NCBI GenBank assembly: GCA_964452565.1
Contig: CAYVLY010000003.1
Location: forward strand, 22,555 to 86,554
DNA length: 64,000 nt
Direction: 5' to 3'
Source: an uncultured Gammaproteobacteria bacterium
Lineage (GTDB): Bacteria > Patescibacteriota > Patescibacteriia > UBA9934
The first letter of the stretch is position 1. Every line of letters begins with the position of its first letter. Position numbers and translations under genes: made by a program. The notes under the pieces are model-generated. The model made no database searches. It was not told the DNA's origin and saw nothing but the letters and a program-made list of their open reading frames with translations. Of the stretch, positions 2,986 to 53,389 are shown in pieces.

Positions 2986-3013
2986 GCCGCAACTCGACTT
3001 CTGATCGACAATA

Positions 3014-3035: not shown

Positions 3036-3064
3036 TTCAAGCCATAAAAATAGGCTTTTTTGTT

Positions 3065-3078
3065 CAAGGTTGAACCTC
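3065..3078. repeat. Solo REP-like palindrome tcaaggttgaacct, a partial copy of the 18-bp RAYT-flanking repeat
   Basis: It matches 14 of 18 nt of the inverted repeats at 28715-28732 and 29436-29453. A second palindrome, gaggtttaacctc, follows immediately. Confidence 0.45.
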
Positions 3079-3100
3079 TGAGGTTTAACCTCCTAATTCT

Positions 3101-7417: not shown

Positions 7418-8881
7418 ATGTCAAAGCGCATCATCCAAATTCTAATAATTCTAATACCGGTTGTGATTTTTATCTGGTTACTTTGGATTGATCTGTGCCC
7501 CTCTGGCGTAAAGGAGGTATCAATCGAAGTGGGTGAATCAAGTCCTTACATCTACAGCATACTGCCAGATGAACGAGTATCAGATATTGAGTTTACTGAT
7601 GCGGGTGATGTATTTGTCACGATTGAAGATGAGCCAACATACTTTAGTGTGACATTACCGCAAACAGATTTTGATGAGATAGAGGTGGAACTTGAGTTTG
7701 ATTCATACTTACAGCCTGTGATCGAAGTTGGAGGCTTGGCAGACATCTACTCGGAGAGTTATGACTTAGAGCCGCTTCTAAATACTGAGCTTGATCAGCT
7801 GACATGGTCAGAGATTTCAGATGACGGGGTCAGACTCCTACAACGTGAATACAATTTTGATTCAATACCCGAGTTTTTTGTGAACATGCCTGATCGTGAT
7901 TCAATTGGTGTTTATCACTATGACCTTAAAGAGCCATATCGAATATCTAACTATCGGGCCTCAAGCTCCGAGCAGACGGTCAATGTCTCGTTACGCGGAT
8001 ATCATAAATATCTGACCTATATCAAAGACGAGGATTTTTACCTCGAAGTTGATTATATGGACATGAACCGCACTACTGGCGTAGATGATGCGGTGATTCG
8101 TATTCGAAACGAGCTAGATGAGGTCATGTTCGAATACTTTATCTATGATGATGGAAATGAGTTGGAGAATCAGATTGATTCAGAAGGAACCGCTATCATC
8201 GATCAGTCTAACTGGCCCGAAGGTGTATATTCGATCGAATTATCTGGAACAAGTGATGTGTTCTGGCGGTCGTTAACAACAAGACAGCAGTACATGACGT
8301 TTGTTGGCAAGGTCTATATTGCAGATGATGTTGGGTATCTTGCATCTCCACGTGCAACAAGTTTTTACACAGATGCAAAGCATCTGACACTTGAAACAAC
8401 GCATGCAGATTCGGTTCAAAGCGTACGTATCGGATCCGAATGGGTTGGAGTGTCGGAAAGTCATACAAAGTATAAGTACACAGTTGATGATACTGGTTTA
8501 GTGTATGGATACTCGTCAGTTGGCGACATAAAGATCACTGGAGATGGGAAGTTTGCCTTCACAGGCAGCATGTTTTTCAATCCTGACGCTGTATCACTAA
8601 ATGCCTATTCAGATATCAACGCCTTAGGAATTGACTACATTCTTACAACGTATGATCAGCCTGATCAAAGCGAGGATTGGAGTACTGCCTCGGCAACATT
8701 TGAGATTGGATCACTTGAGAATTTCGATAACTCTACGAAGTTCACGATCTCAACACCTGGTTTGATCGAATTCGGTGCAGCTGTTGATATACACTCGATT
8801 GCGGTTCGATTCTTGAAAGACCCAATGACCTGGCGCGAGATCCTATCGGCAGTTCGAAATCTAATACCATTTGGGATTTAG
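7418..8881 (+). CDS. Hypothetical exported or membrane-anchored protein (single N-terminal TM, large acidic ectodomain)
   Basis: 487-aa ORF with the N-terminal hydrophobic helix IILIPVVIFIWLLW. It is tightly coupled to the upstream GT-C gene. Confidence 0.6.
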   Translation: MSKRIIQILIILIPVVIFIWLLWIDLCPSGVKEVSIEVGESSPYIYSILPDERVSDIEFTDAGDVFVTIEDEPTYFSVTLPQTDFDEIEVELEFDSYLQPVIEVGGLADIYSESYDLEPLLNTELDQLTWSEISDDGVRLLQREYNFDSIPEFFVNMPDRDSIGVYHYDLKEPYRISNYRASSSEQTVNVSLRGYHKYLTYIKDEDFYLEVDYMDMNRTTGVDDAVIRIRNELDEVMFEYFIYDDGNELENQIDSEGTAIIDQSNWPEGVYSIELSGTSDVFWRSLTTRQQYMTFVGKVYIADDVGYLASPRATSFYTDAKHLTLETTHADSVQSVRIGSEWVGVSESHTKYKYTVDDTGLVYGYSSVGDIKITGDGKFAFTGSMFFNPDAVSLNAYSDINALGIDYILTTYDQPDQSEDWSTASATFEIGSLENFDNSTKFTISTPGLIEFGAAVDIHSIAVRFLKDPMTWREILSAVRNLIPFGI

Positions 8882-8882: not shown

Positions 8883-9527
8883 ATGAGAAAACTATTTTTA
8901 ACATCAAGCTCAGATTTACTTTATGATCATTTGCAGGGTTTTCTCGAAAAGCCTGTAGATGAAGTTAAAATTGCTTGGATAACAACAGCAAAGAAAGGAT
9001 CGCCAAACAAGGAATATGTGGAAAAACATCGTAAGAAGATGAATCAGTTAGGGTGGAAGTTCACGGAGATCGATATCGAGGGAAAAACAGAAGAAGAGCT
9101 AAGAGAGTTGCTTGAAGACAAGGATATTATATACATGCACGGAGGTAATACTTTTTATCTCCTTAGGGCGATCAAGGCTGGAATATTTGAGAAGGTATTA
9201 GCAGAAAAGCTAGATCAGGGAGCGTTATATGTTGGTACAAGTGCAGGTACTTACGTGGCCTGCCCAACAATCGAAATGGCTGAATGGAAGCGCGATAGAA
9301 GATATTTTAGATTTGAAGATCAGGACTTAATTGCGATGGGTTTGGTGTCTTTTCTTGTAATGGTTCATTTCGAACCAAAGCATGAAGAAGACATCAGAGT
9401 AGGGATGAGTAAAACTGACTTAGATGTTTATGTATTAAGTGATGAGCAGGGTTTATATGTTGAGGATGGTGAAGTTCGATTGGTCGGGAAAGGTGATAGA
9501 ATTCAGTTAGATAAATATGCAAAGTAG
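8883..9527 (+). CDS. Peptidase S51 (dipeptidase E / cyanophycinase-like)
   Basis: HGGNTFYLL and GTSAG motifs of the S51 family. The Met at 8883 follows the upstream stop. Confidence 0.7.
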   Translation: MRKLFLTSSSDLLYDHLQGFLEKPVDEVKIAWITTAKKGSPNKEYVEKHRKKMNQLGWKFTEIDIEGKTEEELRELLEDKDIIYMHGGNTFYLLRAIKAGIFEKVLAEKLDQGALYVGTSAGTYVACPTIEMAEWKRDRRYFRFEDQDLIAMGLVSFLVMVHFEPKHEEDIRVGMSKTDLDVYVLSDEQGLYVEDGEVRLVGKGDRIQLDKYAK

Positions 9528-9855
9528 CATTGCGAAAACTGCGTTTTTGACGAGCCTTATTAGTTACGGTGTGTTTTTGTTGTTTGAATACTTGCGGCCG
9601 GGGTTTGTACAATACGTGTTTTCAGTGCATTGGTTCCTGGTTTTGATCATCGGAACAGGAATTTGGTATGCGGTTGTGGCTCAAGACCATGCACGTCGAA
9701 ATACTTTGTGGCGCTTGGCCCAGTTGATCATCGGATTGCTGCTAATGGTCGTTCTGCTGCGGGAAGGTGAAGTGTTTGGTGATTTTCGAATCTTGGTGGC
9801 TGTCATTGGGCTTGCTTTGCCGTTTGCAGTTGCGCGTCTGCTCAGATCGAATTAA
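9517..9855 (+). CDS. Small hypothetical membrane protein
   Basis: 112-aa ORF with 3-4 predicted TM helices. It overlaps the upstream gene by 11 nt. Confidence 0.45.
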   Translation: MQSSIAKTAFLTSLISYGVFLLFEYLRPGFVQYVFSVHWFLVLIIGTGIWYAVVAQDHARRNTLWRLAQLIIGLLLMVVLLREGEVFGDFRILVAVIGLALPFAVARLLRSN

Positions 9856-9873: not shown

Positions 9874-10278
9874 ATGTCAGACTGTATTTTTTGTAAAATC
9901 ATAAGCGGGGAAGCGCCATCATATAAGATTTATGAGGATGATAAGGTTGTAGTGTTTTTAAATATCTTTCCGGTATCAAAAGGCGCTACATTGATTGTAC
10001 CCAAGAATCACAATTCTTTTATGGCAGATGGACCTGAGGAGGATGCATTGGCTATGATGAAGGCTTTGTATAAAATCGCGCCCTTGATGATGGAGGGCCT
10101 TGGTGCTACTGGTTATAACCTTGGGATGAATCATGGAGAGAGCGCTGGTCCAGAGATACTGCACACACATATTCATGTGATGCCACGATATGATGGGGAG
10201 AAGCGGTCGTTTGAAAGATACGAGGCGTCAAAGGAGGAGCTTGAAGATGCTTTTAGACGTATGAAGTCAAAGATGTAA
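9874..10278 (+). CDS. HIT-family hydrolase (histidine triad)
   Basis: HTHIHVMPR histidine-triad motif and an N-terminal CxxC (DCIFCKI). Confidence 0.85.
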   Translation: MSDCIFCKIISGEAPSYKIYEDDKVVVFLNIFPVSKGATLIVPKNHNSFMADGPEEDALAMMKALYKIAPLMMEGLGATGYNLGMNHGESAGPEILHTHIHVMPRYDGEKRSFERYEASKEELEDAFRRMKSKM

Positions 10279-17769: not shown

Positions 17770-18204
17770 ATGAAAATCATTCTACTGGAGGACGTGAAGA
17801 GTATTGGCAAGAAGGGGGATATAAAAGAGGTAAACGACGGGTTTGCCCGCAATTTTTTGTTCCCACAACATAAGGCAGTTGAAGCGACAGAACATGCGAT
17901 AGCTCAGCAGACGCAGAAGAAAAAGGCAGCAACTGCTCGTGAGAAAAAGCAATCAAAGGCAGATAGGCAGGCTGTTTCAAAAGTTGATGGAGTAGAGGTT
18001 GTTATCAGGGCCAAGGCAGATAAGGGAAAGCTTTACGCAGCAGTTACAGCAAAAGAGGTTTCTGATGGTCTTAAGAGCCAAGGATTCAAGTTCAAAGAGT
18101 CTGAAGTTGAGTTCTCTACAACAAAGGATGTGGGAACTTACGACGCAATTGTCTCTAAAGGTGAGTTTGAGGCAGGGATCACTGTCGCTATTGAACCGAA
18201 ATAA
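17770..18204 (+). CDS. rplI: 50S ribosomal protein L9
   Basis: [32 protein letters not shown] is the canonical L9 N-terminus. Confidence 0.9.
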
Positions 18205-24194: not shown

Positions 24195-24201
24195 AACAAA
24201 A

Positions 24202-24230
24202 ACACCCGCTGATATCGTGCGGGTGTTTTT
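24202..24230. terminator. Bidirectional terminator acacccgc-tgatatcgt-gcgggtgt with T-runs on both sides
   Basis: It serves murG on the + strand and the convergent small gene on the - strand. Confidence 0.65.
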
Positions 24231-24232
24231 GA

Positions 24233-24412
24233 TTACTCGGCAGGTGTCTCTACTGGAGCCTCCTCTGCAGGTGCCTCTGCCGGCGCTTCTGCTGGAGCCT
24301 CAGCAGGAGTTTCCTCTGCTGGAGCAGCAGTCTCACCAGCGCAGTTTGGGCAAAGACCATCAGTCAATTGCTCATCTGCAACTTCTGAGCTGCATGCAAC
24401 ACATACTCCCAT
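24233..24412 (-). CDS. Small zinc-ribbon protein with an acidic Pro-Ala-Glu repeat tail (59 aa, below the ORF-track cutoff): MGVCVACSSEVADEQLTDGLCPNCAGETAAPAEETPAEAPAEAPAEAPAEEAPVETPAE
   Basis: Hand-translated from the - strand. It has CxxC-x13-CxxC and is flanked by terminators. The ORF-track + strand ORFs here (AGASAG repeats) are its antisense shadow. Confidence 0.45.
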   Translation of the reverse strand: MGVCVACSSEVADEQLTDGLCPNCAGETAAPAEETPAEAPAEAPAEAPAEEAPVETPAE

Positions 24413-24494
24413 ATTTGAGTCGTGTTATGAATTAGTTTGCTTATTAATAGTAACAAAAACCAGCGAGTTTGTCGCTGGTATATTGTTTTTTTAT

Positions 24495-24644
24495 CTACTC
24501 AGCAGGTGCCTCAGCTGGAGCTTCTTCTGCTGGAGCCTCAGCTGGAGTCTCCTCAGTTGTAGCTGCTTCCTCTACAGTCTCCTCAGCAGGAGCTGCTGTT
24601 GGCTCATCAGTTGCTGGAGTTGCCACTGTTGTATCTTCATCCAT
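24495..24644 (-). CDS. Small acidic PAE-repeat protein, paralogous tail (49 aa): MDEDTTVATPATDEPTAAPAEETVEEAATTEETPAEAPAEEAPAEAPAE
   Basis: Hand-translated from the - strand. An extended -10 (TGCTACAAT) lies upstream and the terminator ccagcga-gtttg-tcgctgg lies downstream. Confidence 0.4.
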   Translation of the reverse strand: MDEDTTVATPATDEPTAAPAEETVEEAATTEETPAEAPAEEAPAEAPAE

Positions 24645-24722
24645 ACGAATATATTATTAATGATTTAACTATGATCCATTGTAGCAGATTATTCTTAAAA
24701 CCTGTGGACAAACAGTGAATAC

Positions 24723-24751
24723 TTGATTTATTCAGCTAAATGTGGTATAAA
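24723..24751 (+). promoter_or_regulatory. Promoter TTGATT-17-TATAAA (with TGG extension) for tRNA-Lys
   Basis: Read directly from the sequence. It lies about 30 nt upstream of the mature tRNA 5' end. Confidence 0.4.
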
Positions 24752-24783
24752 TTTGCCGTTGAATAACAATTTAATCTCATTGA

Positions 24784-24859
24784 GCACCGGTAGCTCAGTT
24801 GGTAGAGCGAGGGCCTTTTAAGCCCGAGGTCGCGGGTTCGAGTCCCGCCCGGTGTACCA
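24784..24859 (+). tRNA. tRNA-Lys (anticodon UUU), CCA encoded
   Basis: Manual cloverleaf: 7-bp acceptor stem with one G·U pair, D-loop with GG, anticodon loop CUUUUAA, T-loop TTCGAGT, 76 nt. Confidence 0.85.
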
Positions 24860-26097: not shown

Positions 26098-28704
26098 ATG
26101 ACAGATAAATCACAACAACTACAACTTCCATGGCATGCGCACTCCGTAGCGGATGTGTTTTTAGCTTTTAATACATCAGCGCAGGGTCTATCTGAATCAG
26201 AAGTAAGGGACAGGATCGAAGAACATGGGCTAAACGAATTGCCGAAAAAAGTTCCACGCTCTGGATTGGCTATATTTTTTACACAATTTGCAAATCCGTT
26301 GATGATCATTTTGGTGTTAGCTGCTGTTATAAGTGCACTATTACAGGAATGGCTTGATACAAGTGTGATTCTGTTTGCAGTTTTGTTAAATGCGATTTTA
26401 GGTTTTGTGGAAGAGTATAAGGCTGATAAATCAATGGAGAAGCTCAAATCGTTTTTACCGCAGCGTGCAAGGGTACGTAGGGGTGGAGTTGAGCGCATCA
26501 TTGATTCAAAACAGATTGTGCCAGGTGATGTTGTTATTCTTGGAACTGGCGACAAGATTATGGCAGATGGGCGTATCATCCTTACACAATCACTCGAGGT
26601 AAGTGAAGCAGCTCTCACTGGAGAGTCGGCGCCTATTGTAAAGCAAAAGGAACGCATAAATGTCAACATCGGTGTAACAGATAGAAAGAACATGCTTTAT
26701 GCAGGAACCGTGCTAGTCGCAGGACGGGCTGAGATGGTTGTCACAAACACGGGTGTTGAAACACAGATTGGTAAGATTACACAACTTGTCGCTGGAGTAG
26801 AACAAACCAAGACCCCCTTGCAAGAACAGATGAGTAAGTTTGCTCGTTGGCTAGGAGGCGCTGTATTACTTATAACTCTGGTCGTATTTTTAGCAGGGAT
26901 TGTTCGTGGTTTTGAGTTTGTTGAGATGATTCGTGTTTCGGTTGCGCTGGCAGTGTCTGCTATTCCTGAGGGGTTAGTAGTCGCGCTGACTGTGATTTTG
27001 GCAATCGGCATGCAAAGGATTCTCAAGAAGCGTGCGTTGATCCGTCGATTGATCGCTGCTGAAACCTTGGGAAGCGTATCAGTTATCTGCATGGATAAAA
27101 CCGGGACACTCACAACAGGCGAGATGGCGGTTGTGGAAGCGCGTGATGCAAAAGGCCAAGTTTCAGATAAGGTCGACGCATTTATTGAACTTGCTGATGC
27201 CCTGTGGAGCACAAAGGACGTTTTCGTAGATGAAGCAGATGGCGAGAGCTTTGCAGGTTCTCCAACTGAAGTAGCGATCATTAAGGCACTGTGGGAAGAT
27301 CGTGATAAGTATGAGCTTCAAAAATGCCAGATCGTCTCAGAGATACCGTTTAATTCAAAATATAAGTATAAGGCTCGCGTCTGTTCATTTGGTGAACGCA
27401 AAGAATTTTATATTGTTGGTGCGCCTGAGATCCTTCTAGAACGACTTGATGCCACTGATCGTCAAATGCGGGATTATCGACTGTGGCTTACAGAGATGAT
27501 TCAAAAGGGCTTGCGTGTTTTGTTGATCGCAAAGCAAAAACAGTTTGGGGATGGGGACATAACACATGATCACATTAAAGACCTAACCTTTGTTGGTTTT
27601 GTTGGGCTAAGCGATCCTTTACGTTCTTCTGCGCGCGAGACCATTGAGAAAGCACAAGACGCTGGACTTTTGCCAGTGATGATCACGGGTGATCATCCAG
27701 ATACAGCTTTTCATATTGCCCGCGATGCTGGGCTTGTAACACGTGAGGATCAGATTATAACAGGGGTGCAGCTTGATGAGCTTGATGATGTCACTTTTGC
27801 TTCAGAGCTTGAGAATATTATTGTTTATGCTCGGGTCTTGCCTAGGCATAAGCTTCGCATTGTTAATGCCTGGCGCACAAAGGGCCGGTCTGTAGCGATG
27901 GTTGGGGATGGTGTGAATGACGCTCCAGCTGTTAAGGGCGCAGATATTGGAATCGCACTTGGCTCTGGAACTGAAGTAGCAAAAGAAACGGCAGATATGG
28001 TACTTCTCGACAATCACTTTGCCACTATTGTTGGGGCAATTGAGCAAGGCCGTGCCATTTTTGAAAACATACGTAAGATGGTCGTTTATCTTCTTGCAGA
28101 TTCATTTAGTGAGATTATTTTGATTTTTGGAGCTATAATCTTTGCGCTGCCATTGCCTATCCTGCCAGCTCAGATTCTTTGGATCAATCTTGTGACTGAT
28201 GGATTTCCAAGTGTTGCTTTGACATTTGAAAAAGCAGAAAAAGGAGTCATGAAAGAACCACCACGGAAGAAAGATGAACCGATTTTGAATAAAGAAATGA
28301 AAGTTCTGATTTTTGTCATCGGAATTATCACAGACCTAATGCTCTTTGCGATCTACTTCTATCTTTTGGACCAGGAGCTTGACATTGATCACATTCGAAC
28401 GTTCATCTTTATCGCGCTTGGTATTGATTCACTCTTTTATGTATTTGCAGTGCGTAAGTTTAGAACAAGTGTTTTCCGATCAAATCCATTTGAGAATAAG
28501 TGGCTAGTTGGCGGTATCTTGGTCGGCTTTTTGTTCTTATTAATACCGATGTTGGTACCGGTACTTCGTGAATGGTTCCACCTCACCCCGCTTACATTAA
28601 TTGAATGGTTGGTTCTAATCGCCATTGCTGTCTTCCAGCTTTTGTTAATCGAAATTGTCAAGATGGGATTCCATAGAAAGCCAAGGCTAGAAAAGGCCAT
28701 GTAA
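26098..28704 (+). CDS. P-type ATPase, type IIA (Ca2+-transporting, SERCA/PMCA-like)
   Basis: DKTGTLT phosphorylation motif, AIPEGL, MITGDH and GDGVNDAPA. Length 868 aa. Confidence 0.9.
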   Translation: MTDKSQQLQLPWHAHSVADVFLAFNTSAQGLSESEVRDRIEEHGLNELPKKVPRSGLAIFFTQFANPLMIILVLAAVISALLQEWLDTSVILFAVLLNAILGFVEEYKADKSMEKLKSFLPQRARVRRGGVERIIDSKQIVPGDVVILGTGDKIMADGRIILTQSLEVSEAALTGESAPIVKQKERINVNIGVTDRKNMLYAGTVLVAGRAEMVVTNTGVETQIGKITQLVAGVEQTKTPLQEQMSKFARWLGGAVLLITLVVFLAGIVRGFEFVEMIRVSVALAVSAIPEGLVVALTVILAIGMQRILKKRALIRRLIAAETLGSVSVICMDKTGTLTTGEMAVVEARDAKGQVSDKVDAFIELADALWSTKDVFVDEADGESFAGSPTEVAIIKALWEDRDKYELQKCQIVSEIPFNSKYKYKARVCSFGERKEFYIVGAPEILLERLDATDRQMRDYRLWLTEMIQKGLRVLLIAKQKQFGDGDITHDHIKDLTFVGFVGLSDPLRSSARETIEKAQDAGLLPVMITGDHPDTAFHIARDAGLVTREDQIITGVQLDELDDVTFASELENIIVYARVLPRHKLRIVNAWRTKGRSVAMVGDGVNDAPAVKGADIGIALGSGTEVAKETADMVLLDNHFATIVGAIEQGRAIFENIRKMVVYLLADSFSEIILIFGAIIFALPLPILPAQILWINLVTDGFPSVALTFEKAEKGVMKEPPRKKDEPILNKEMKVLIFVIGIITDLMLFAIYFYLLDQELDIDHIRTFIFIALGIDSLFYVFAVRKFRTSVFRSNPFENKWLVGGILVGFLFLLIPMLVPVLREWFHLTPLTLIEWLVLIAIAVFQLLLIEIVKMGFHRKPRLEKAM

Positions 28705-28714: not shown

Positions 28715-29453
28715 CCCAAGGTTCAACCTTGAGCAAGAAACCTTTATTTAATGGGGTTGAGCTGATGTGGTAGCCCATACCTTATCCAGTCAAGTAAAAA
28801 TTTGGAGTAGTTATCAAGTGAATTGAATTCATACTTCAAAATATGCTCAGCATTATTTATAGTCGAGAAAATTTTTCGTACATTCGACCATTTATAGTTG
28901 ATGATAAAATTAATAGCGCTGCATATCTTTTTTGTTCCGGATTTCCATTTTGGATTGATAAATTTTAGTGGATTTAGATGGATATAGCGGAATATATGAA
29001 ATAGATACGTATCACTTGTGATGTGTTTTGATTTATACCTAGATTCGAATAGAGCTCCGGATCTTTCATATTTTTTATTGAAGTACATGGTGTATGCGGT
29101 GCCAACCCTCTGCATATACTTCGGAAGCCCATCTTCTGATAGCTGTTCAATGAGTAGGTGGTAGTGATTATCCATTAAACAATAAGCAAGAATTTTAACA
29201 TAGTCATTCCAATCTTTGCTTACTAGGTCTTTAATACAGCCCAGGAACTTCACTCGATCGCGGTCATCAATAAAGATTATTCGCTTATCAACACCACGAT
29301 TATATACATGGAAGTAGCCGAAGTGTTCATTTGATTTTTTCATAAATAAAATTTCCCCACATTAATATTAGATGGGGAGTACATATCTATCACATCATTT
29401 TATTATAAGAAGGTCAATATAGCTTGTTAATACATTCAAGGTTGAACCTTGGG
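28715..29453 (-). mobile_element. REP-associated tyrosine transposase (RAYT) unit bounded by perfect 18-bp inverted repeats CCCAAGGTTCAACCTTGA
   Basis: The inverted repeats at 28715-28732 and 29436-29453 (reverse complement) flank a single HUH/Y1 transposase gene. A partial solo copy sits at 3065-3078. Confidence 0.7.
28744..29343 (-). CDS. IS200/IS605-like Y1 (HUH) transposase of the RAYT type
   Basis: HUH motif DNHYHLLIE and a downstream catalytic Tyr (ESRYKS). Its 199 aa is longer than the IS200 TnpA proteins. Confidence 0.75.
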   Translation of the reverse strand: MKKSNEHFGYFHVYNRGVDKRIIFIDDRDRVKFLGCIKDLVSKDWNDYVKILAYCLMDNHYHLLIEQLSEDGLPKYMQRVGTAYTMYFNKKYERSGALFESRYKSKHITSDTYLFHIFRYIHLNPLKFINPKWKSGTKKICSAINFIINYKWSNVRKIFSTINNAEHILKYEFNSLDNYSKFLLDWIRYGLPHQLNPIK

Positions 29454-29503: not shown

Positions 29504-30961
29504 ATGGATTTACGAAAAATCGAGAATTTTCAAGATGCTGTAGTGACCGTAATGGGGCTAGGTCGATATAAGCAAGGAAGTGGTCTTGGAGCTGCAAAAT
29601 GGCTTATACGCCATGGCGCTCAGACTATCATCACAGACCTCAAAGATGAGACTGAACTTGAAGAGTCCATGGAACTTGTGATGGAGTGGTATCACAAGTA
29701 TCGTGAGATGTATCCGGATCGAACCATTTACTCACCATTATTTGTTCTTGGTGAGCATCGTAAAGAAGATTTCACTGAGGTGGACTGTGTTGTTCAAAAC
29801 CCAGGAGTACCAAGTGAGTCTGAGTTTATTGTTGCTGCAAAACAAGCAGGTGTATCAATCGAATCAGATGTGAGTCTTTTCTTCCGCTTCTCACCATATC
29901 CAATCGTTGCAGTCACAGGGACCAAGGGAAAGACCACAACAACTAAGATGATTGGTACAATGTTTGAGAACCAGGATGACCGAACAATTGTTGCAGGAAA
30001 TATCAAAGTATCGCCGCTTGAGTATCTCGATGAGCTCTTAGTGCGCGGGGAGGAAACACTGATCGTGCTTGAATTATCATCATGGATGCTTGAGAGCTTG
30101 CCAGGTGCATTTGAAGACATTGGTAAGGGACCAGATTTTGCAGTGCTAACCAATGTGTACCCAGATCACTTAAATCGATACAACTCATACGAAGATTACA
30201 TTCATTCAAAGGAGATTATCTTTTTGTCACAGGATCCAGACCAGTACACGATATTAAACTATGATCATGAGACTGTGCGTGGAATGGAATCAAAAGTTCG
30301 CGGACAGCTTTATTGGTGTTCCAGAAAATACATGGACCATAATGGATGTTTTATAAAGGACGGCATGATCGTATTCCGTAAAGAGGGTCAAGAAGAGGAG
30401 ATAGTCCCTGTTGATGAGGTGGGTCTCAAGGGCGAGCATAATATGGAAAATATCCTGACCTCAATTTGTGCTGCTCGACTTCGAGGAGTTGCATCTGATG
30501 TTGTTAAAAAGATCACAAAAGAGTTTCAGGGGGTATCAGATCGACAAGAGCTCGTACGTGAGGTTGATGAGATTACTTATATCAATGATACAACTGCGAC
30601 GCAGCCTGATGCTGTTATTGCTGCGCTAAAGCGATTTGGTGCAGATGCTGATGTGATTCTTATTGCTGGCGGAATGGATAAGGGTGTTGAGTATGATGCG
30701 CTTGCGGATCAGATTGCAGAAACCTGCAAGCACTTGGTGTTGTTTGATGGTGATGCATCGCAGATGATTTCAGAGAAAGTTGGAGATCGTGTGAAAAAGA
30801 CAGAAAAGATTTTGTCCATGAAAGATGCAGTGCAGCATGCAAAGTCTTTAGCTGCTTCAGGTGACATAGTCCTACTCTCGCCAGCGGCCGCAAGCTTTAA
30901 CATGTTTAAGAATGAGTTTGATCGTGGGGAGCAATTCCGTGAAGAGGTGCGAAATTTGTAA
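29504..30961 (+). CDS. murD: UDP-N-acetylmuramoylalanine--D-glutamate ligase
   Basis: N-terminal VTVMGLGRYKQGSG Rossmann-like motif and the AVTGTKGKTTTT P-loop. Length 485 aa. Confidence 0.85.
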   Translation: MDLRKIENFQDAVVTVMGLGRYKQGSGLGAAKWLIRHGAQTIITDLKDETELEESMELVMEWYHKYREMYPDRTIYSPLFVLGEHRKEDFTEVDCVVQNPGVPSESEFIVAAKQAGVSIESDVSLFFRFSPYPIVAVTGTKGKTTTTKMIGTMFENQDDRTIVAGNIKVSPLEYLDELLVRGEETLIVLELSSWMLESLPGAFEDIGKGPDFAVLTNVYPDHLNRYNSYEDYIHSKEIIFLSQDPDQYTILNYDHETVRGMESKVRGQLYWCSRKYMDHNGCFIKDGMIVFRKEGQEEEIVPVDEVGLKGEHNMENILTSICAARLRGVASDVVKKITKEFQGVSDRQELVREVDEITYINDTTATQPDAVIAALKRFGADADVILIAGGMDKGVEYDALADQIAETCKHLVLFDGDASQMISEKVGDRVKKTEKILSMKDAVQHAKSLAASGDIVLLSPAAASFNMFKNEFDRGEQFREEVRNL

Positions 30962-34161: not shown

Positions 34162-34221
34162 ATGTCCACAGATTTGTTTGTTCGAACCGCCATAATTGAT
34201 ACAATATACGCACAAATATAC

Positions 34222-37200
34222 ATGAGATATATAAAGACAAGATCACTTGCCTTATTCATTTGTAATGTTTCAGTCATTGCAGTATTTGTGTTTCTTGCTG
34301 GAGTTTTGTGGGTCAATAATGCTGAAGCTGCTGTTGTAACTTGGGAGGGAGATGTTGATAATAATTGGAGCACTGATGGCAACTGGGATACTGGAACGGC
34401 TCCTACTTCGATCGATGTTGCGACATTTGTGGACGCCTATGATGCAAACTGCGATATTGATGCCACGATTAATGTCAAAGGAATTGATATAAACACCGGA
34501 TACGCCGGCACAATCACGCAGCAGACAGGTTCTGATATAACAGTTGGAACTAGTGATTTTGCCCAGGATGCGGGTACATTCACAGGAAGTAGTAATGCTT
34601 CTGACGACATTACCATCAATGGTGACCTTACCGTAGGAAGTAATTTTACATCTACTAAAGGAACTTTGTATTTGGCTGGAATAGTTAATATCACAGGAAC
34701 ATTTACCCACAACAGCGGAACAGTAGAAGCTATTTTTGCTTCTGGAAGTACAGATACTGATTTTAATAATGCGGCGACTTTGTATAACTTCATTGTTAAC
34801 AAATCAAGCTGGGACGTAAATTTGAGCGGTCAGACTATCATAGTGGAAGGCACGCTAACTTTGACAGATGGAGCAGTTAACAATGGCACGATTGAGATGC
34901 AAGGAGTAACAACAACGGTTGGTACAGATGCGGGTAATGGAAATGCTGATATCGAGTTCACACAATCTGCTACCCAGACACTTACATGTAGTGCCACTTA
35001 TTTCCAATATAAGATAACCGTTAACAAAGCCGGAGGATCCTTTGACTTTGGTTCAAATATTGATACATCAACCGATGCCAGTGCAGACTTTGTACTTACA
35101 TTAGGAACAGTTAATCTTGGCAGTTATACATTAAATGTTCATGATGATATACAAATCGATGGCGGAACGTTTAATAGTAATACAGGAGATGTTATAACAG
35201 ATGATCTAAGAATTAATGCTGGTACCTTTGAAGCTCCTGACGCTAGTGGTTCCTTGGCAATTTCTGGCGTCCTTGTGGTAGATGGTACATTCACCCATAA
35301 TGACGGAACAGTTACGCTTGATGACACAACAGCTGCTGGAGATGTAGATATTTATGATGCTGTTACTTTTAAAAACCTTGTATTAAACAAAACGGGCGGC
35401 TGGGGATTGAATTTGAGAACCATAACCATCATTGTGACAGACACATTGACTGTTACAGATGGGTACATCAACAACGGTACGCTCGAGATGCAGGGAGCAA
35501 CAACAACTATTGGCGCTAATGCTGACAATGGAAATGCTGACTTTGAGTTCACACAATCAGCCACTCAGACACTTACGTGTAACGCAACTTACTTCCAATA
35601 CAAAATAATCGTTAACAAAGCCGGAGGATCCTTTGACTTTGGTTCAAATATTGATACATCAACCGATGCCAGTGCAGACTTTGTACTTACATTAGGAACA
35701 GTCAATCTTGGCGGTTATACATTGGATGTTCAAGACCTTATACAAATCGATGGCGGAACGTTTAATAGTAATACAGGAGACATTATAACTGATAATTTGA
35801 CGATTAATGGTGGTACATTTGAAGCTCCTGACGCAAGTGGTTCTTTGACTATTTCCGGAGACCTAAGAGCGACTGGTACATTTACTCACAACGATGGTAC
35901 GGTCACGTTTGATGACACAACAGCTGGCGGAGAAGTAAATATCTATAATGCTGTCACATTCAAAAACCTTGTATTAAACAAAACAAGTGGCTGGGGGTTG
36001 AATCTAAGAACCACAACAACTATTGTTACAAATACACTTACCGTGACAGATGGTTACGTCAACAACGGTACCTTGCAGCTGCAAGGGGCAACAATAACGG
36101 TTAATGCAGATGACAATGGAACTGCTGACTTTGAGTTTACAGGATCTGCTACGCAGACATTTACCTGTGGCGCAACTTACTTCCAAAACAAAATAATTGT
36201 CAACAAAGCCGGAGGATCCTTTGATTTTGGTTCAGATATTGATGTTAGTACTGATGGAAATGCAGATTTTGTGCTTACAACAGGAACAGTCAATCTTGGC
36301 AGTTATACATTAGACCTTCACGATGACTTGCAAATCGATGCCGGAACATTTAATGGTGGTTCAGGGGATATTGTAGCCAATGACGTTTTAATCAATGGTG
36401 GTACATTCGAAGCTCCAGATGCCAGTGGATCATTAACTCTTTCAAAGGTCCTCACCGCTGTTGGCACCTTTTCTCACAACAATGGGACGGTAACATTTGA
36501 TGATACAGTATCCGGTGGAGACGCGGATGTTAATCAGGCAGTTACGTTTAATAATCTCGCAGTTAACAAGCCTGGCTGGGGGCTACAGCTTAGTTCACAG
36601 ACCATTGTTGCTGAAGGGGCACTAACCATGACAGACGGTAGATTCAATAGCGGAACTGTGCAGGCGCAAGGAAATGTTACTGTTGCATCAGCCTGGGATA
36701 CTGATACAAGCACAACATTGCAGTTCACTAGCAGCAATGTGCAAAGCTTTGATTTAACAGGTGCTACAGGTGCTTTTAACGCTGATATTGTTATTAATAA
36801 GTCCGGAGGGTCTGTTCAGCTAGCCTCAGATTTGACAATGAATCAGTCAGACCAAGACCTGACTATTGTTGAAGGAACTTTTGATCTTAATGGTTACGAT
36901 CTTGATATCAACGACCAAGCAAATAGTGACTTCGATATTGAAGATGGAGGGGTACTTAGGTGGCAGGGCTCGGAAACATTGTCAGTAAATACTGGTGACC
37001 CCACGCTTGCATCTGGAAGTCAAGTTATCTATGACCCGACTTCGGGGACTGTCTCACTACAGGATTGGACATATCATCATCTAGAAGTAGTAGGTACTGG
37101 TGGTGCGGTTGTGCAGATGGGATCTACGGAAACTATAGCTGGGAATTTAACAATAACGTCAGGAATACTTGATGTAAACGGCTCTGGTCTCACGGTTAGT

Positions 37201-40200
37201 GGAACATTTAGTAATTTAGGCACATTGAGAATCCAGGGTGATGAGACATTGTCTTTAACCAATGATACTGACAGTGGAACCATTGAATTTGTAGGAGATG
37301 GAGATAGCGCAGCAGATGCTTACAACATGCTTAATTGGACCTTTAATAACCTCTCAGTTAATTTTACTGACAGCGCTGATTCAATCAATGGTCAGTATTT
37401 AACTGGCACAAACACCATGGCAAATAATCTATGGTCATATTGGAATTTGGATGATGGGTCAGGATCAACTGCAACTGACCAGTCAGCAAATACGAATAAT
37501 GGAACACTTAATAATATGGAGGAAGGGGACTGGATTACATCTGATTTAGCGCCTCTTACCTTCACAAATACCAATGGTTTAGTTTTCGATGGCGGAACTA
37601 GTAATGAATATGTTGAATTTACTAGTGATGCAGCCTTCAATGACAGATCAGTTTCACTCTGGTTCAAAACATCTGACACGTCATCCAGGCAGGTGTTATT
37701 TCAAGAGGGAGGGACATCTAATGGAATGAATATTTATATAGATGGAGGAAAAGTTTATGGTGGCTCCTGGGGGAGTGGGATAAATTCAGTATTCCTGTCC
37801 GGAAATATTAGCGCAGATACTTGGACAAATGTAATTTTAACATTTGACGATACTGGAAATCTTGAATTGTTTATAGGCAATGTAAGCCAAGGAACATCTG
37901 CAACTGGTGGATCTATGCCAGCACATACCGCACAAGATTCTTTGGCGGCAAAGCTAGGTGATACAAAGTATCACGATGGTACCAGTAATGGTAACGGTCA
38001 TTATTTCAATGGTCGCATGGACGAGGTCAGAGTTTATGAGCGCGTTGTTACTAGTGCCGAACGAATAGCACTTGCGGCAGGAAGTAATGATAGCCGTACT
38101 TCAACACCACTGAGCTCTCTAACAGTTAATAGTAATTTTACTCAGGCTGGCGGAACCTTTACTGCACCAACAGGAACAATGACGGTGAAGGGGAACTTTG
38201 CTAATACTGGTGGAACATTTACACACAACAGCGGAACAGTAGCATTGTCTGATTCAGGTGTTGCAACAACTGTCTCTGGAAACACGACATTTAACAACCT
38301 GTCAATGACGACTAATGGAGATACAATCACATTTACGCATACTACAACAACAACTGTGGCAGGTACATTTACAGTAACTGGTGCGTCAGGTCAGCAAATA
38401 ACTCTAGCTAGTTCAGACCCAGGTACCACTTGGCTTTTAAATGTTTCCGGAACAAGTTCCGTTGACTACGTACATGTTACAGATTCAGATGCAAGTGGTG
38501 GCAATGCCATCACACATGTTGATGTTGCTCATTCTACTGATAATGGGAATAATACCAACTGGGGCTTTAATGTTGCTCCAACAGTTACATCTGTTACAGC
38601 AGTTCAAGAATCAGACGGAACTGTCACAATTACATTCATCATGGATGATGGCGATGATGATAATACCCTAGAAGCCCTTGTTCAATACAATGTAGGTGGA
38701 GGGAATACAAAGGCGACTCTTAGCGAGACAGATGGAGATACTTCTGCAACATATGGAGATCCAAAAGTAGAGAATGATGATACTTATCAAGTTGGTAATG
38801 CCTCTGGATATATAACAAGTTCATCTGGAGCTAATACAGTGACGACGCAATGGAATGCATCTACAGATGAAACAGGGATAGATATTTCTACTGCAACCAT
38901 CACGGTTACTCCATACGATGGAACTGAAGCAGGAACACCATCTTCTAGTTCAAACTTTTCATTAGATCTCACGGCTCCAACAGTATCATCAGCGTCCTAC
39001 AAGGATACAAATGCAGATGGAACAGTGGATCGAGTGGATATTGTGTTTAATGAAAACGTTTCACTGGGAAGCTATAATACAGCAGACTGGTCATTCTCAG
39101 AACAAGGAACAATAACATTAGATGACTCTGGAGCGTCTGCTTCTACCGATACCATATTATTAACAGTCACGGCAGATGCTAACGAAACAGGAGGAGCAAC
39201 CGCGCCAACAGTGCTATATACAAATGCTGCGGGTAGATTAACAGATGCATACAATAATGCGGTTGCAACATTTGGAGCTGCGCAGACAGTTACTGACGCT
39301 GCTTCTCCGCGCATGAACCAGATTGGGTATAGGGATTCAGATGCAGATGGGCAGATAGATTCCGCAGTTCTAGCATTCTCAGAGACGGTAACCATTGTTT
39401 ATGACGATGGAGATTGGGTTACGGTAGCTAATGACCTGACAAACATGGACGTTTCAGCGATTGCTTCAGGAAACGGAACATCAAGTGTCACATTTACTGC
39501 AACAGCCGCAGCAGACATCACAGGGGGCTCTACACAACCAACAATTGCGTTTACTCCAACAACTGGATCTATTCAGGACTCAGCTACAAACGCTGCAACA
39601 GCATTTAGTGCAACATCATTTGTAGACGAGGCAAAGCCAGTAATCTTAACCTCAACTCCAACGGATACATCTACTGTTCAATCACGAACGAATGCTATTG
39701 TCTGGAATTTCTCAGAGGCAATGGCTACTGGTGGAGGATGGGTGCATGCCTCAGAGTTTACCTCGACCCCAAACCCAGGAGGATGGGGAACTGCTTCTTG
39801 GAGTAATAGTGATAAAACTGTAACTGTTTCACATGCTCCATTCTTATGTATTACAGATTATTCAATAGCGACAGATGATACTGTTATAGCTGCCGCTGCG
39901 GGGGAGACTGGATACACAGCATTGGATGACTCTGCTTCAGCCCCAATTGGAACAGCTTTAACCTTCACGACCATGACTTGCACAGGGACAAGCTCAAGCC
40001 AGGCGTCTCAAGTCGCAGATACAATGAGTTATCCTGTTACAGATGATATTGATGTTGCAGATGGTGCAGGAGCGGCTGATGAGGATGAATGTTCTGGCGT
40101 AGAGCCAGGGGCAAAGATTAAATTATCCTGGTCAGTGACTTCTAGTGTTGGGTTTGTGAATCTGTACTATTCAACAGATCAGGGTGAGACTTACGCCACC

Positions 40201-40998
40201 ATTGCAAGTCAAGCTACAAACTCTGGAAGTTACTCATGGATAGCGCCAGAAGGTCTTTCTGAGGCATCTGATATACAATTCAAGATTGAGGGAACTGACC
40301 TTGTTGAAATAACAAGTACTTATGAAACTGGATTAATGGATATATGTGAGGTAGAAGAAGTGGATGAAGATGACGATGCTGTCGATGATGCCGATGACAC
40401 AGCAGATGCCGCTGATGGTGAAGAAGAGGCAGAGGAGATTGTTGTACCGATTGGAATGGCGATTGAATCAGCCTTTGGTGATAAATGGACAAAGGAAGTG
40501 GCAAAAAGAGAAATAGATACGTCAGAGTTCCCAGTACAGGAAGTTGCCATTGGTTCACTTGTGAAGCTCGTAGATGATGGAGACCCAGCAACGCAGGCGG
40601 ATTCAGCAGTCTATTACGTTGGCGCCGATCAACGAAGACATCCATTCCCCAATGAATCGGTGTACAGTACATGGTTCACGACTTTTCACGGTATAAAAAC
40701 CATTGAACAGGAAACAATGTCCGCGATTCCAATGGGACCCATGGTTACTTATAGGCCAGGTTCGACCCTTGTGAAGTTCCCGTCTGTAAATAAGGTTTAT
40801 GCTATTGATGCTGACGGTTCACTGCGATGGATCGCAACAGAGGAGCTTGTAGAAGAATTGTATGGAGACGAGTGGAATAAATTTATAGTAGATATTTCAG
40901 AAGCCTTCTATTCAAGTTACGAATTTGGAACCAGCTTAAGCTCTATGGAGGACATGACCTGGGATACAGTGATGGCATTATACGCAGCGAATAAGTAG
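34222..40998 (+). CDS. Giant cell-surface protein (about 2259 aa): N-terminal signal anchor, three 198-aa tandem beta-rich repeats, LamG/concanavalin-like lectin domain, further Ig-like repeats, acidic D/E stretch
   Basis: Single uninterrupted ORF with hydrophobic N-terminus IAVFVFLAGVLWV. A LamG_3-like region starts at WSYWNLDDGSGSTATDQSANTNNGTLNN and ends at FNGRMDEVRVYERVVTSAERIALAAG. DEDDDAVDDADDTADAADGEEEAEE lies near the C-terminus. Confidence 0.8.
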   Translation: MRYIKTRSLALFICNVSVIAVFVFLAGVLWVNNAEAAVVTWEGDVDNNWSTDGNWDTGTAPTSIDVATFVDAYDANCDIDATINVKGIDINTGYAGTITQQTGSDITVGTSDFAQDAGTFTGSSNASDDITINGDLTVGSNFTSTKGTLYLAGIVNITGTFTHNSGTVEAIFASGSTDTDFNNAATLYNFIVNKSSWDVNLSGQTIIVEGTLTLTDGAVNNGTIEMQGVTTTVGTDAGNGNADIEFTQSATQTLTCSATYFQYKITVNKAGGSFDFGSNIDTSTDASADFVLTLGTVNLGSYTLNVHDDIQIDGGTFNSNTGDVITDDLRINAGTFEAPDASGSLAISGVLVVDGTFTHNDGTVTLDDTTAAGDVDIYDAVTFKNLVLNKTGGWGLNLRTITIIVTDTLTVTDGYINNGTLEMQGATTTIGANADNGNADFEFTQSATQTLTCNATYFQYKIIVNKAGGSFDFGSNIDTSTDASADFVLTLGTVNLGGYTLDVQDLIQIDGGTFNSNTGDIITDNLTINGGTFEAPDASGSLTISGDLRATGTFTHNDGTVTFDDTTAGGEVNIYNAVTFKNLVLNKTSGWGLNLRTTTTIVTNTLTVTDGYVNNGTLQLQGATITVNADDNGTADFEFTGSATQTFTCGATYFQNKIIVNKAGGSFDFGSDIDVSTDGNADFVLTTGTVNLGSYTLDLHDDLQIDAGTFNGGSGDIVANDVLINGGTFEAPDASGSLTLSKVLTAVGTFSHNNGTVTFDDTVSGGDADVNQAVTFNNLAVNKPGWGLQLSSQTIVAEGALTMTDGRFNSGTVQAQGNVTVASAWDTDTSTTLQFTSSNVQSFDLTGATGAFNADIVINKSGGSVQLASDLTMNQSDQDLTIVEGTFDLNGYDLDINDQANSDFDIEDGGVLRWQGSETLSVNTGDPTLASGSQVIYDPTSGTVSLQDWTYHHLEVVGTGGAVVQMGSTETIAGNLTITSGILDVNGSGLTVSGTFSNLGTLRIQGDETLSLTNDTDSGTIEFVGDGDSAADAYNMLNWTFNNLSVNFTDSADSINGQYLTGTNTMANNLWSYWNLDDGSGSTATDQSANTNNGTLNNMEEGDWITSDLAPLTFTNTNGLVFDGGTSNEYVEFTSDAAFNDRSVSLWFKTSDTSSRQVLFQEGGTSNGMNIYIDGGKVYGGSWGSGINSVFLSGNISADTWTNVILTFDDTGNLELFIGNVSQGTSATGGSMPAHTAQDSLAAKLGDTKYHDGTSNGNGHYFNGRMDEVRVYERVVTSAERIALAAGSNDSRTSTPLSSLTVNSNFTQAGGTFTAPTGTMTVKGNFANTGGTFTHNSGTVALSDSGVATTVSGNTTFNNLSMTTNGDTITFTHTTTTTVAGTFTVTGASGQQITLASSDPGTTWLLNVSGTSSVDYVHVTDSDASGGNAITHVDVAHSTDNGNNTNWGFNVAPTVTSVTAVQESDGTVTITFIMDDGDDDNTLEALVQYNVGGGNTKATLSETDGDTSATYGDPKVENDDTYQVGNASGYITSSSGANTVTTQWNASTDETGIDISTATITVTPYDGTEAGTPSSSSNFSLDLTAPTVSSASYKDTNADGTVDRVDIVFNENVSLGSYNTADWSFSEQGTITLDDSGASASTDTILLTVTADANETGGATAPTVLYTNAAGRLTDAYNNAVATFGAAQTVTDAASPRMNQIGYRDSDADGQIDSAVLAFSETVTIVYDDGDWVTVANDLTNMDVSAIASGNGTSSVTFTATAAADITGGSTQPTIAFTPTTGSIQDSATNAATAFSATSFVDEAKPVILTSTPTDTSTVQSRTNAIVWNFSEAMATGGGWVHASEFTSTPNPGGWGTASWSNSDKTVTVSHAPFLCITDYSIATDDTVIAAAAGETGYTALDDSASAPIGTALTFTTMTCTGTSSSQASQVADTMSYPVTDDIDVADGAGAADEDECSGVEPGAKIKLSWSVTSSVGFVNLYYSTDQGETYATIASQATNSGSYSWIAPEGLSEASDIQFKIEGTDLVEITSTYETGLMDICEVEEVDEDDDAVDDADDTADAADGEEEAEEIVVPIGMAIESAFGDKWTKEVAKREIDTSEFPVQEVAIGSLVKLVDDGDPATQADSAVYYVGADQRRHPFPNESVYSTWFTTFHGIKTIEQETMSAIPMGPMVTYRPGSTLVKFPSVNKVYAIDADGSLRWIATEELVEELYGDEWNKFIVDISEAFYSSYEFGTSLSSMEDMTWDTVMALYAANK
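34850..36450 (+). repeat. Three tandem intragenic repeats of about 594 nt (198 aa); copies 1 and 2 are near-identical at the DNA level
   Basis: For example, 35016-35110 and 35610-35704 are identical except for single bases. A third, more diverged copy begins near 36201. Confidence 0.7.
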
Positions 40999-41120
40999 AT
41001 AAAGCAAAACACCCTGAGCGAAGTCGAAGGGTGTTTTTGATCGATTATTTTTAGTTGAACCATTTTAGTTCAACTAATAAAATTGAACTAAAATTTTGCG
41101 CTAAAATTAGCTCAGAAATC

Positions 41121-52195: not shown

Positions 52196-52197
52196 AT

Positions 52198-52971: not shown

Positions 52972-52980
52972 TTATCGCTT

Positions 52981-53053
52981 GGGGGTATTCCATCCCCCAA
53001 ACCCCCTGGCCATGTTTCTTTGCTGGCCCAAAGAAATATGGAAAAGAAAAGGC
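52981..53053 (+). repeat. Two-hairpin element A (gggggtattccatccccc … ccatgtttctttgctggcccaaagaaatatgg …), left direct repeat of the GC-rich island
   Basis: About 85% identical over 73 nt to 55857-55929 in the same orientation. Confidence 0.6.
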
Positions 53054-53267
53054 CTTTGCGAGTAGTCCCGCGGCTTACTAGAACACAGACACCTGCCGCC
53101 AATTTTTTTATTAGAGGTATTAATGGTTGGGCTGATCGATAATCTCCAGCCGTAGGGTTGGCGTCGGGTCGCAAGGCCCGACACCATCAGGGACGTAGGG
53201 CAACTGCACGCACTCAAGATTAGCTGGGGAAAATTGGCTGGGGACTGAGTTTGAGGATACAGACAAA

Positions 53268-53295
53268 ACACCACCCAATCGGGTGGTGTTTTTTG
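53268..53295. terminator. Bidirectional terminator acaccaccc-aatc-gggtggtgt flanked by A/T runs
   Basis: Perfect 9-bp stem with aaaa upstream and tttttt downstream. Confidence 0.55.
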
Positions 53296-53389
53296 CGCTG
53301 TTCACAAGTTTACTTATGAACACTGCGTGTTGGCAGAGCACAGTACTAGGTACTGGCCCTGCCTGTGAGACGGGGGAAGGGACGGGGGA

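Follow-up and report, generated by a model that had tools for sequence, protein, structure and literature searches.

A Y1 transposase gene between inverted palindromes, a probable resident RAYT-like module in a Patescibacteria genome

Introduction

Transposase-derived genes can persist together with their non-autonomous repeats by vertical descent, and the best example of this is given by the REP-associated tyrosine transposases (RAYTs, named after the repetitive extragenic palindromes, REPs) and the REPIN repeats. Published RAYT surveys have mainly covered cultured Proteobacteria, Cyanobacteria and Bacteroidetes. Patescibacteria, also called the candidate phyla radiation (CPR), have genomes of around 1 Mb with few repeats. 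Here, we describe a Y1 tyrosine transposase-like gene located between two inverted copies of a short palindrome in a 64,000-nucleotide stretch of contig CAYVLY010000003.1 (assembly GCA_964452565.1), from an uncultured bacterium placed by GTDB in the Patescibacteriota. We call this whole stretch the window, and coordinates refer to it unless another locus is named. In the reading that we favour, with a probability of roughly 0.7, the locus is a resident, vertically inherited RAYT-like module (a 'TIRtron' or 'REPtron') consisting of an intact HUH/Y1 gene with two inverted cognate palindromes and processing short repeats.

In the E. coli REPtron (TnpAREP/RayT with its REPs and bacterial interspersed mosaic elements; PMC3479197), a single, chromosomally fixed gene lies between inverted hairpin-forming repeats. 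These REPs are G+C-rich imperfect palindromes of 20-40 nt, carry a 5' GTAG guide and occur in hundreds of copies; canonical RAYT repeats typically exceed 100 copies in extragenic space. What is repeated in the Pseudomonas REPIN-RAYT system (PMC3116915) is a long hairpin made of two inverted units. It occurs in identical copies both beside the gene and scattered through the genome, again in the hundreds, and the system is vertically inherited. The insertion sequences (ISs) of the IS200/IS605 family, such as IS608 and ISDra2, have a core-only Y1 protein of about 150 aa with a Y---Q motif, occur in several near-identical copies per genome, often with tnpB, and have ends that are not inverted repeats of each other.

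Quentin et al. 2018 define class 2 Y1 proteins by a Y---NP motif (PMC6006769, Table 1). Subclass 2.1, which corresponds to Group 1 of Bertels et al., is recognised by NH[YF]H, F-Q instead of W-Q/E, Y[IV]HLNP and an 'SS' tail; its members have a median length of 238 aa, a low copy number and a tail with a helix-turn-helix (HTH)-like domain (Bac_DnaA_C, HTH_23 or HTH_28), and are equated with the TIRYTs that Di Nocera et al. described in 2013 (PMC6006769). TIRYTs are RAYT-like genes with terminal inverted repeats (TIRs) that bear no relation to GTAG REPs (PMC3733652). Among the TIRs are self-complementary sequences, dimers or clusters, and families of moderate abundance; most published TIRs contain GGGGWSAS, and the authors note other TIRs unrelated to this motif (PMC3733652). 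The 16-mers that flank Group 1 genes are found around 12 times per replicon, a number above that of housekeeping genes and well below that of the REPIN-associated groups (Bertels et al. 2017, PMC5581495). Our literature search found no published description of a RAYT or TIRYT system in Patescibacteria or the CPR.

Results

A Y1 gene bounded by exact inverted repeats

The two arms of the unit, CCCAAGGTTCAACCTTGA at 28715-28732 and TCAAGGTTGAACCTTGGG at 29436-29453, are complementary at 18 of 18 positions and lie 703 nt apart. Among the inverted pairs that a repeat finder detected in the region, this one is the longest (18 nt, 100% complementary). In flank pairs drawn as a null, exact inverted repeats reached at most 11 nt, both in 390 shuffles and in 139 real-sequence controls. 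Because none of the shuffles and none of the real-sequence pairs with the same spacing reach 12 nt, the 18-nt repeat cannot be attributed to chance. Both arms are themselves 7+1+7 palindromes, CAAGGTT[C/G]AACCTTG, so that their 'inverted' as opposed to 'direct' orientation is set by the central C or G alone.

The left arm is found between convergent genes, 11 nt past the stop codon of a P-type ATPase gene and 12 nt past that of the Y1 gene. As single-stranded DNA (ssDNA) it forms a hairpin of 6 bp that closes a 3-nt loop (-4.4 kcal/mol; -6.0 kcal/mol for the opposite strand). The right arm, 93 nt upstream of the Y1 ATG, separates Y1 and murD, which start divergently, and its ssDNA hairpin has -4.4 kcal/mol and a z-score of -3.5. 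Followed by GCTTTTATAT on the plus strand, the right arm is also terminator-like, the sole such match in the region. We found no 5' GT[AG]G guide tetranucleotide at the arms, which read ..tcaCCCAAGGTT.. and ..attCAAGGTT.., and the outer ends of the unit, CCTTGGGGCTTT and CCTTGGGTGAAA, do not match the GGGGWSAS motif. The palindromes match no known RNA family in Rfam, whose sole match in the window is one tRNA-Lys.

The encoded protein matches the Pfam family PF01797 (Y1_Tnp) with 35.7 bits (gathering cutoff 23, E 1.1e-8), as do 40 of 40 aligned relatives. The motif HYHLL occupies residues 60-64, and Y120, the predicted catalytic tyrosine, lies within RYIHLNP. In an alignment of 40 sequences (the window protein and 39 relatives), H12, R16, G17, H60, H62, F88, N89, R94, G96, F99, Y120, N124 and P125 are invariant. 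An AlphaFold2 model (predicted local distance difference test score, pLDDT, 91.9; predicted template modelling score, pTM, 0.87) places four helices at the C-terminus, and the 199-aa protein has a helical C-terminal extension compared to the IS200/IS605 core.

The top Foldseek match of this model is E. coli TnpAREP in complex with a REP hairpin (4er8_A, E 4.8e-7, 158 aligned columns, around 11% identity), followed by the ISDra2, IS608, IS200 and Sulfolobus Y1 transposases with around 125-130 columns. All 27 best PDB fold matches are Y1 transposases (4er8, 2xm3, 2a6m, 2vjv, 2f4f, 2ec2 and others). By sequence profile, nothing in the PDB is found at E <= 0.01, and at E <= 10 only ISDra2 TnpA and 4ER8 appear, with 14-15 bits. 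Accordingly, two claims of a preliminary description of this DNA, made by a model from its letters, hold up: perfect 18-bp inverted repeats do bracket the unit, and the 199-aa protein is of the HUH/Y1 family.

The same description also called the unit a complete RAYT/REP system. This stands for the layout, a gene between inverted hairpin-forming repeats, and fails for a canonical RAYT. The protein carries Y---NP, and it scores 46.2 bits against the NCBIfam equivalog REP_Tyr_transpos (NF047646), below the cutoff of 80, while the arms lack GT[AG]G.

No second copy of the Y1 gene was found in the 64-kb window by tblastn or by searching six-frame translations with a family hidden Markov model. The gene has a G+C content of 34%, compared to 44.3% for the window and 0.42-0.44 for the neighbouring genes. 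All features of the module are listed in Table 1.

Table 1. Features of the Y1 module and its solo repeats in the window
Feature	Coordinates	Strand	Remarks
Left inverted-repeat arm	28715..28732		CCCAAGGTTCAACCTTGA; 7+1+7 palindrome CAAGGTTcAACCTTG at 28717-28731
Y1/HUH tyrosine transposase-like gene	28744..29343	-	199-aa open reading frame (ORF), sole ORF between the arms
Codon of Y120, predicted catalytic tyrosine	28984..28986	-	In RYIHLNP, the class 2 'Y---NP' motif
Codons of the HUH metal-binding motif H60-Y61-H62	29158..29166	-	Inside NHYHLL; H60 and H62 invariant in the 40-sequence alignment
Promoter-like site of the Y1 gene	29402..29430	-	TTAACA, 17 nt, TATAAT; 11/12 consensus matches
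Right inverted-repeat arm	29436..29453		TCAAGGTTGAACCTTGGG; palindrome CAAGGTTgAACCTTG at 29437-29451
Solo inverted dimer, 11-nt unit AGGTT-N-AACCT	3065..3092		AGGTTGAACCT ctg AGGTTTAACCT; whole dimer CAAGGTTGAACCTctgAGGTTTAACCTC
Solo inverted dimer of the sister unit	41052..41077		TAGTTGAACCA ttt TAGTTCAACTA-A; repeat type of locus L006

The -35 hexamer of the promoter-like site starts 6 nt past the upstream palindrome; the call is a consensus match, in a region that overall is not enriched for such sites. The leader (29344-29401, minus strand) contains ATGATGTGAT(A/G)AGTAT... followed by a hairpin CUCCCC...GGGGA that would pair the Shine-Dalgarno-like GGGGA. It is kept in two related loci, L002 (8575-8636) and L006 (9960-10000). 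The leader core GATGTGAT is not family-wide, being present in 4 of 77 upstream regions (the window, L002, L006 and L076). The leader may control translation of the Y1 gene.

The same layout recurs across the protein family

We found 3,325 relatives of the Y1 protein at E <= 0.001 in a database clustered at 90%. The few that carry a source name are all Patescibacteria (Uhrbacteria, Yonathbacteria, 'Patescibacteria group'), and the best named matches of the neighbouring MurD are Patescibacteria and Uhrbacteria as well.

We then surveyed the flanks of the Y1 gene in 80 metagenome loci whose proteins are 30-48% identical to that of the window. Among the 78 analysable loci, 30 have exact flanking inverted repeats of at least 12 nt (12-38 nt), a length reached in 0 of the 390 shuffles and 0 of the 139 real controls described above. 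This count is a lower bound, as many contigs stop near the gene and the analysis misses imperfect repeats like those of L006. The palindromes that make up the arms are specific to each lineage and have stems of 5-13 bp and centres of 1-5 nt, and their sequence is identical on both sides of the gene (for example AAGGTTCGACCTT, ACAGGTCCGACCTGT, GGAAGATGATCTTCC, CCGGTGTCGGACACCGG and TTAGGAGCCTCGCTCCTAA). Frequently they are inverted dimers that fold into perfect hairpins. In L006, the gene of P0008 (48% identical) lies at an unrelated site, with dimers of a sister unit, TTAGTTGAACTAtttTAGTTCAACTAA, on its flanks.

This result shows that a gene between its own palindromes is a common layout across Patescibacteria genomes. 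The preliminary description had considered a complete unit unusual for a small AT-rich genome; neither part holds, given the number and source of the relatives, the recurring layout and a window that, at 44.3% G+C, is not especially AT-rich.

In three loci, cognate palindromes are also found in frame inside the Y1 ORF itself: L062 at 8346-8358, L053 at 10153-10167 and L015 at 6878-6920 (two copies). They are located in a variable insert that follows helix A and precedes the HUH strand, around residues 62-76, and that is absent from the window protein, and they encode the peptides EVQPQ, LEDDLP, FRSLAPK and FRSEAPK. Quentin et al. described a REP within tnpAREP as a feature unique to subclass 2.4 (PMC6006769), and the in-frame palindromes found here parallel it. 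They are the most direct sign that the palindromes move.

Solo copies of the repeats

In the window, the exact 18-mer, and the 15-mer at up to two mismatches, are found only at the two flanks and at 3065-3079. There, CAAGGTTGAACCTCT (3065-3079) is followed by GAGGTTTAACCTC (3080-3092). The preliminary description had reported these as a partial solo palindrome and a second palindrome; both are present, and we read them as one inverted dimer with units at 3067-3077 and 3081-3091, the second being degenerate. The dimer lies between convergent ORFs, directly past a terminator-like hairpin (3013-3036), and forms an 11-bp hairpin (-7.4 kcal/mol, z-score -3.0). In sequence, it nearly equals the 28-nt palindrome on the flanks of the L002 ortholog.

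Another solo dimer, at 41052-41077, is of the type that flanks the 48%-identical Y1 gene of L006, and its link to the Y1 module is one of similarity. It is located downstream of a 2278-aa ORF, past a terminator-like hairpin, with a hairpin of its own of -7.5 to -8.9 kcal/mol (z-score -4.5). Its cognate gene is not in the window, and the genome may hold a second Y1 gene outside these 64 kb. Reciprocally, L006 holds an AGGTT-type dimer at 17983-18009; both genomes thus carry both repeat types.

Dispersal is seen more clearly in relatives. Solo cognate copies occur on the same contig as the gene in L015 (three sites), L052 (one), L006 (two clusters) and L068 (one). The rough density, around 8 solo sites in around 210 kb, suggests tens of copies per genome, not hundreds.

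To look beyond these contigs, we scanned GTDB species-representative genomes for AGGTTNAACCT-N(1-8)-AGGTTNAACCT, which gave at least 119 stretches, and analysed 80 of these loci. CPR titles are found on 39 of the 80, and in 10 of the 80 a family Y1 gene (E below 1e-45) adjoins the AGGTT-N-AACCT dimer. The dimer flanks the gene on both sides in L101, L126, L130 and L152. For example, Uhrbacteria SI037_bin110 has the flanked gene of L101, an identical solo dimer on L116 and a spacer variant on L148, and T7-022_bin-281 has the flanked gene of L130 with solo dimers on L120 and L147; in both genomes, these other contigs are without a Y1 gene. Since any hairpin stem that includes this self-complementary unit fits the search pattern, we did not use the collection-wide excess of dimers and relied on recurrence within a genome and on adjacency to a Y1 gene. 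The dispersal proposed in the preliminary description is weak in the window itself; in relatives, identical or near-identical solo copies are found on other contigs.

Near-identical dimers, cGTAGGTTGAACCTACg, are also found on six contigs of Omnitrophota BS750m-G21, a metagenome-assembled genome outside the CPR (L088, L091, L093, L136, L155 and L163). No Y1 gene was found within these six loci. Their GTTSAAC core is framed by GTAG...CTAC, similar to the published 'double-foot' GTAG REPs. GTAG is inside the palindrome only in some relatives (Omnitrophota, L052).

History of the locus

The Y1 gene is located between the convergent P-type ATPase gene (26098-28704) and murD (29504-30961), which starts divergently. 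Its closest relative, P0002 in L002 (60% identical), has the same position between ATPase and MurD. On both sides, the L002 gene is flanked by a 28-nt perfect palindrome, AAGGTTGAACCTCTAGAGGTTCAACCTT, which is an inverted dimer of AGGTT-S-AACCT. As ssDNA, these dimers fold with -13.5 and -16.3 kcal/mol and z-scores near -7. Removing the central 15 nt from the upstream dimer gives exactly the window arm, CCCCAAGGTTCAACCTTG, and the monomers of the window therefore look like collapsed dimers.

Identity between the window and L002 is 92% for MurD, 81% for the ATPase, 72-78% (by alignment) for a second Mur ligase and 60% for Y1. The corresponding non-synonymous divergence (dN) is 0.34 for Y1 and 0.06-0.14 for the neighbours, that is, 2.4 to 6 times higher in Y1. 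The synonymous divergence (dS) is saturated in all four genes, so that dN/dS could not be computed for this pair. With dS saturated and dN high, the Y1 gene has long been at the ATPase|MurD site and evolves fast, with its catalytic residues kept.

Other loci have a different content at this site. ATPase and MurD are adjacent in L209 (MurD 85% identical) and L212 (75%), with spacers of 69 and 163 bp that hold neither Y1 nor palindrome. In L207 (MurD 86%), the same spacer holds a HicA toxin pair (3672-4233) and a cluster of AGGCTTAGCCT / AGGCTAAGCCT palindromes (4268-4370). The spacer looks like a recurrent insertion hotspot. Aligning the regions upstream of murD puts the right edge of the inserted segment at 29454 to around 29468, just outside the right arm. 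Thus, the unit with both arms was either acquired a single time, in the shared ancestor of the window and L002 lineages, or lost from the other lineages, and it has stayed in place since then. Plasmids and phages gave only distant partial matches (26-48% identity), with no sign of an origin from either.

In L002, a G+C-rich segment of around 350 bp (9265-9600), which the window lacks, separates the downstream palindrome of Y1 from the stop codon of the ATPase gene. The segment contains a 71-aa ORF on the minus strand, which is called in the duplicate contig L004 and has no Pfam match.

Discussion

Comparison with described systems

The window protein reads NHYH (59-62), LFE (98-100), YIHLNP (120-125) and WSNV, where the family consensus is NHFH, LFE/LFQ, YIHLNP and WSSY with a nearly invariant S153. 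By motif signature, we provisionally assign it to subclass 2.1 / 'TIRYT'. The locus resembles the TIRYTs in this signature, in low copy number and in a Y1 gene between terminal inverted repeats without GTAG, and its layout fits a TIRtron with self-complementary TIRs. It differs from them in its host, the published examples coming from Proteobacteria, Acidobacteria and similar groups, in its length of 199 aa compared to the median of 238 and in arms without GGGGWSAS. In the tail, the 'SS' motif is WSSY in the family and WSNV in the window, helices are modelled at the C-terminus, and Pfam detects no HTH domain in any of the 40 family members, the window protein included.

The E. coli REPtron provides the best fold match and shares the HUH and Y---NP chemistry, the gene between inverted hairpin-forming repeats and the single (here, in 64 kb), chromosomally fixed copy. 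Compared to E. coli REPs, the units of the window family are short (11-15 nt), sparse and without a guide. With the Pseudomonas system the relatives share the long hairpin of two inverted units as the repeated entity, the identical copies that flank the gene and are scattered in the genome, and vertical inheritance. The hairpins are smaller here, around 25-30 nt, their number is in the tens instead of the hundreds by our rough estimate, and the flanks in the window are monomers.

On the model of IS608, ISDra2 and E. coli TnpAREP, the module could work as follows. The palindromes would extrude as small hairpins when single-stranded, for example on the lagging-strand template. The Y1 enzyme, a predicted single-strand DNA endonuclease-ligase, would bind these hairpins and cut beside them through a covalent 5'-phosphotyrosine at Y120, with a metal held by H60 and H62. 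It would then rejoin the ends, thereby excising or inserting short units or inverted dimers (REPIN-like mini-hairpins of around 25-30 nt). Such an enzyme would spread the repeats and not its own gene, and it may benefit the host.

Alternative explanations

Several observations weigh against a repeat-processing module. Across loci, the repeat and its central base have no constant orientation relative to the gene. The monomeric arms of the window fold weakly, with around -4.4 kcal/mol on most strands and -6.0 at best, and the cleavage site cannot be predicted because the conserved guide tetranucleotide is absent. In the window genome, the repeat family is barely demonstrated, with one degenerate cognate solo dimer and one sister-type dimer in 64 kb that include around 4.9 kb of intergenic sequence. 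Subclass 2.1 is reported to have no REP-like structures beside its genes (PMC6006769), whereas arms in the window family form hairpins and have solo copies. Finally, repeat type and protein similarity are weakly linked (40.6% compared to 37.6% identity). For repeat type and protein clade, 10 of 2000 permutations reach the observed difference, and nearest neighbours agree in 15 of 23 cases; these figures come from a sample biased by the DNA-pattern search that found the loci, and we do not use them as support.

The segment from arm to arm (around 740 bp) could instead be an autonomous insertion sequence, transposing as a whole like an IS200-family element or a TIR-bounded transposon. This would explain why the inverted repeats lie exactly at the edges of the inserted segment, why module and arms are missing from the spacers of L209 and L212 with other cargo in L207, and why the gene has a lower G+C content and a higher dN than its neighbours. 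Group 1 is also the most IS-like of the true RAYT groups, exceeded only by Group 6, which falls within IS200 (PMC5581495). Nevertheless, we consider a mobile unit of this kind unlikely. There is one copy in 64 kb, and the gene has been kept at its site while synonymous sites became saturated between the window and L002. In relatives, it is the short repeats and not the gene that multiply, and relatives on plasmids and phages are only distant. The Y1 HUH fold, and the expected recognition of hairpins at the ends, are common to the window protein and the IS200/IS605 family; the class 2 motif Y---NP replaces the IS200 motif Y---Q, the neighbours are an ATPase gene and murD with no tnpB, and IS200/IS605 ends are not inverted repeats.

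Alternatively, the palindromes could be regulatory sites of the host, a bidirectional terminator together with an operator or insulator at the Y1 and murD promoters, whose match reflects a shared regulatory function and not processing by Y1. Their positions are suggestive: the stop codons on either side of the left arm are convergent, the -35 hexamer of the promoter-like site is next to the right arm, which with GCTTTTATAT gives the region's sole terminator-like match, and the solo dimers at 3065 and 41052 are found in 3' intergenic regions beside terminator-like hairpins. In other bacteria, REPs have known roles in termination and in the stability of mRNA (PMC3733652). A purely regulatory origin is rather improbable in our view, as it leaves unexplained the palindromes that flank the Y1 family in 30 of 78 loci from many lineages, a sequence that varies between lineages and is identical on both sides of the gene, and the copies in frame within the ORF. 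Termination could also be a function that was co-opted secondarily, compatible with processing by Y1.

We give very little credence to a decaying relic, that is, the inactive remnant of a repeat-spreading system whose repeats erode in a streamlined genome. The collapse of the arms to monomers compared to the 28-nt dimers of L002, the mutated second unit of the solo dimer, the high dN and the low G+C content would all fit such decay. The ORF is nonetheless full-length with all invariant family residues kept, the structure model is confident, the arms still match at 18 of 18 positions, and the gene has a strong promoter-like site and a conserved leader.

Implications

Taken as a resident RAYT-like module, the locus extends the range of RAYT-like systems to streamlined, symbiotic bacteria. 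The family would represent a CPR branch that is widespread, has very small hairpin repeats and is apparently undescribed, in an arrangement that is itself known from RAYTs and TIRYTs elsewhere. The published absence of REP-like partners in subclass 2.1 is thereby put in question. The very small substrates (units of 11-15 nt, hairpins of 25-30 nt) could serve the biochemistry of hairpin recognition by HUH enzymes. For annotation, the locus would be described as a resident RAYT/TIRYT-like module, neither as an active insertion sequence nor as evidence of recent mobile-element activity.

Tentatively, a larger scheme is also possible, of which we are less confident: an extensive, undescribed partnership of repeats and transposases in Patescibacteria and some neighbouring phyla. 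In such a partnership, Y1 enzymes with the 2.1/'TIRYT' signature would mobilise REPIN-like hairpins of 25-30 nt, and these elements would be kept by vertical descent in highly reduced genomes and even enter, in frame, the gene of the enzyme itself, with the window as a collapsed, monomer-flanked example. The hairpins may follow one design, two 11-nt near-palindromic units with the core GGT-NNN-ACC, most often AGGTT-S-AACCT.

Other features of the window

The window has a G+C content of 0.52-0.57 at 52000-56000 and at 2000-4000, compared to around 0.43 otherwise, and neither stretch has an rRNA or other Rfam match. No Pfam match was found for their ORFs at 53390-54343 (-), 54896-55729 (-), 1801-2985 (+) and 3101-5209 (-). 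These stretches may be acquired islands.

Upstream of the tRNA-Lys gene (24784-24859), a non-coding gap of around 590 bp (24195-24783) contains repeated CTGCTG-gag-CAGCAG hairpins at 24289, 24316 and 24584. Finally, the 2278-aa ORF mentioned above (34162-40998, plus strand) lies directly downstream of a dcw-like cluster that comprises murD, the second Mur ligase gene and a DivIC-like gene.

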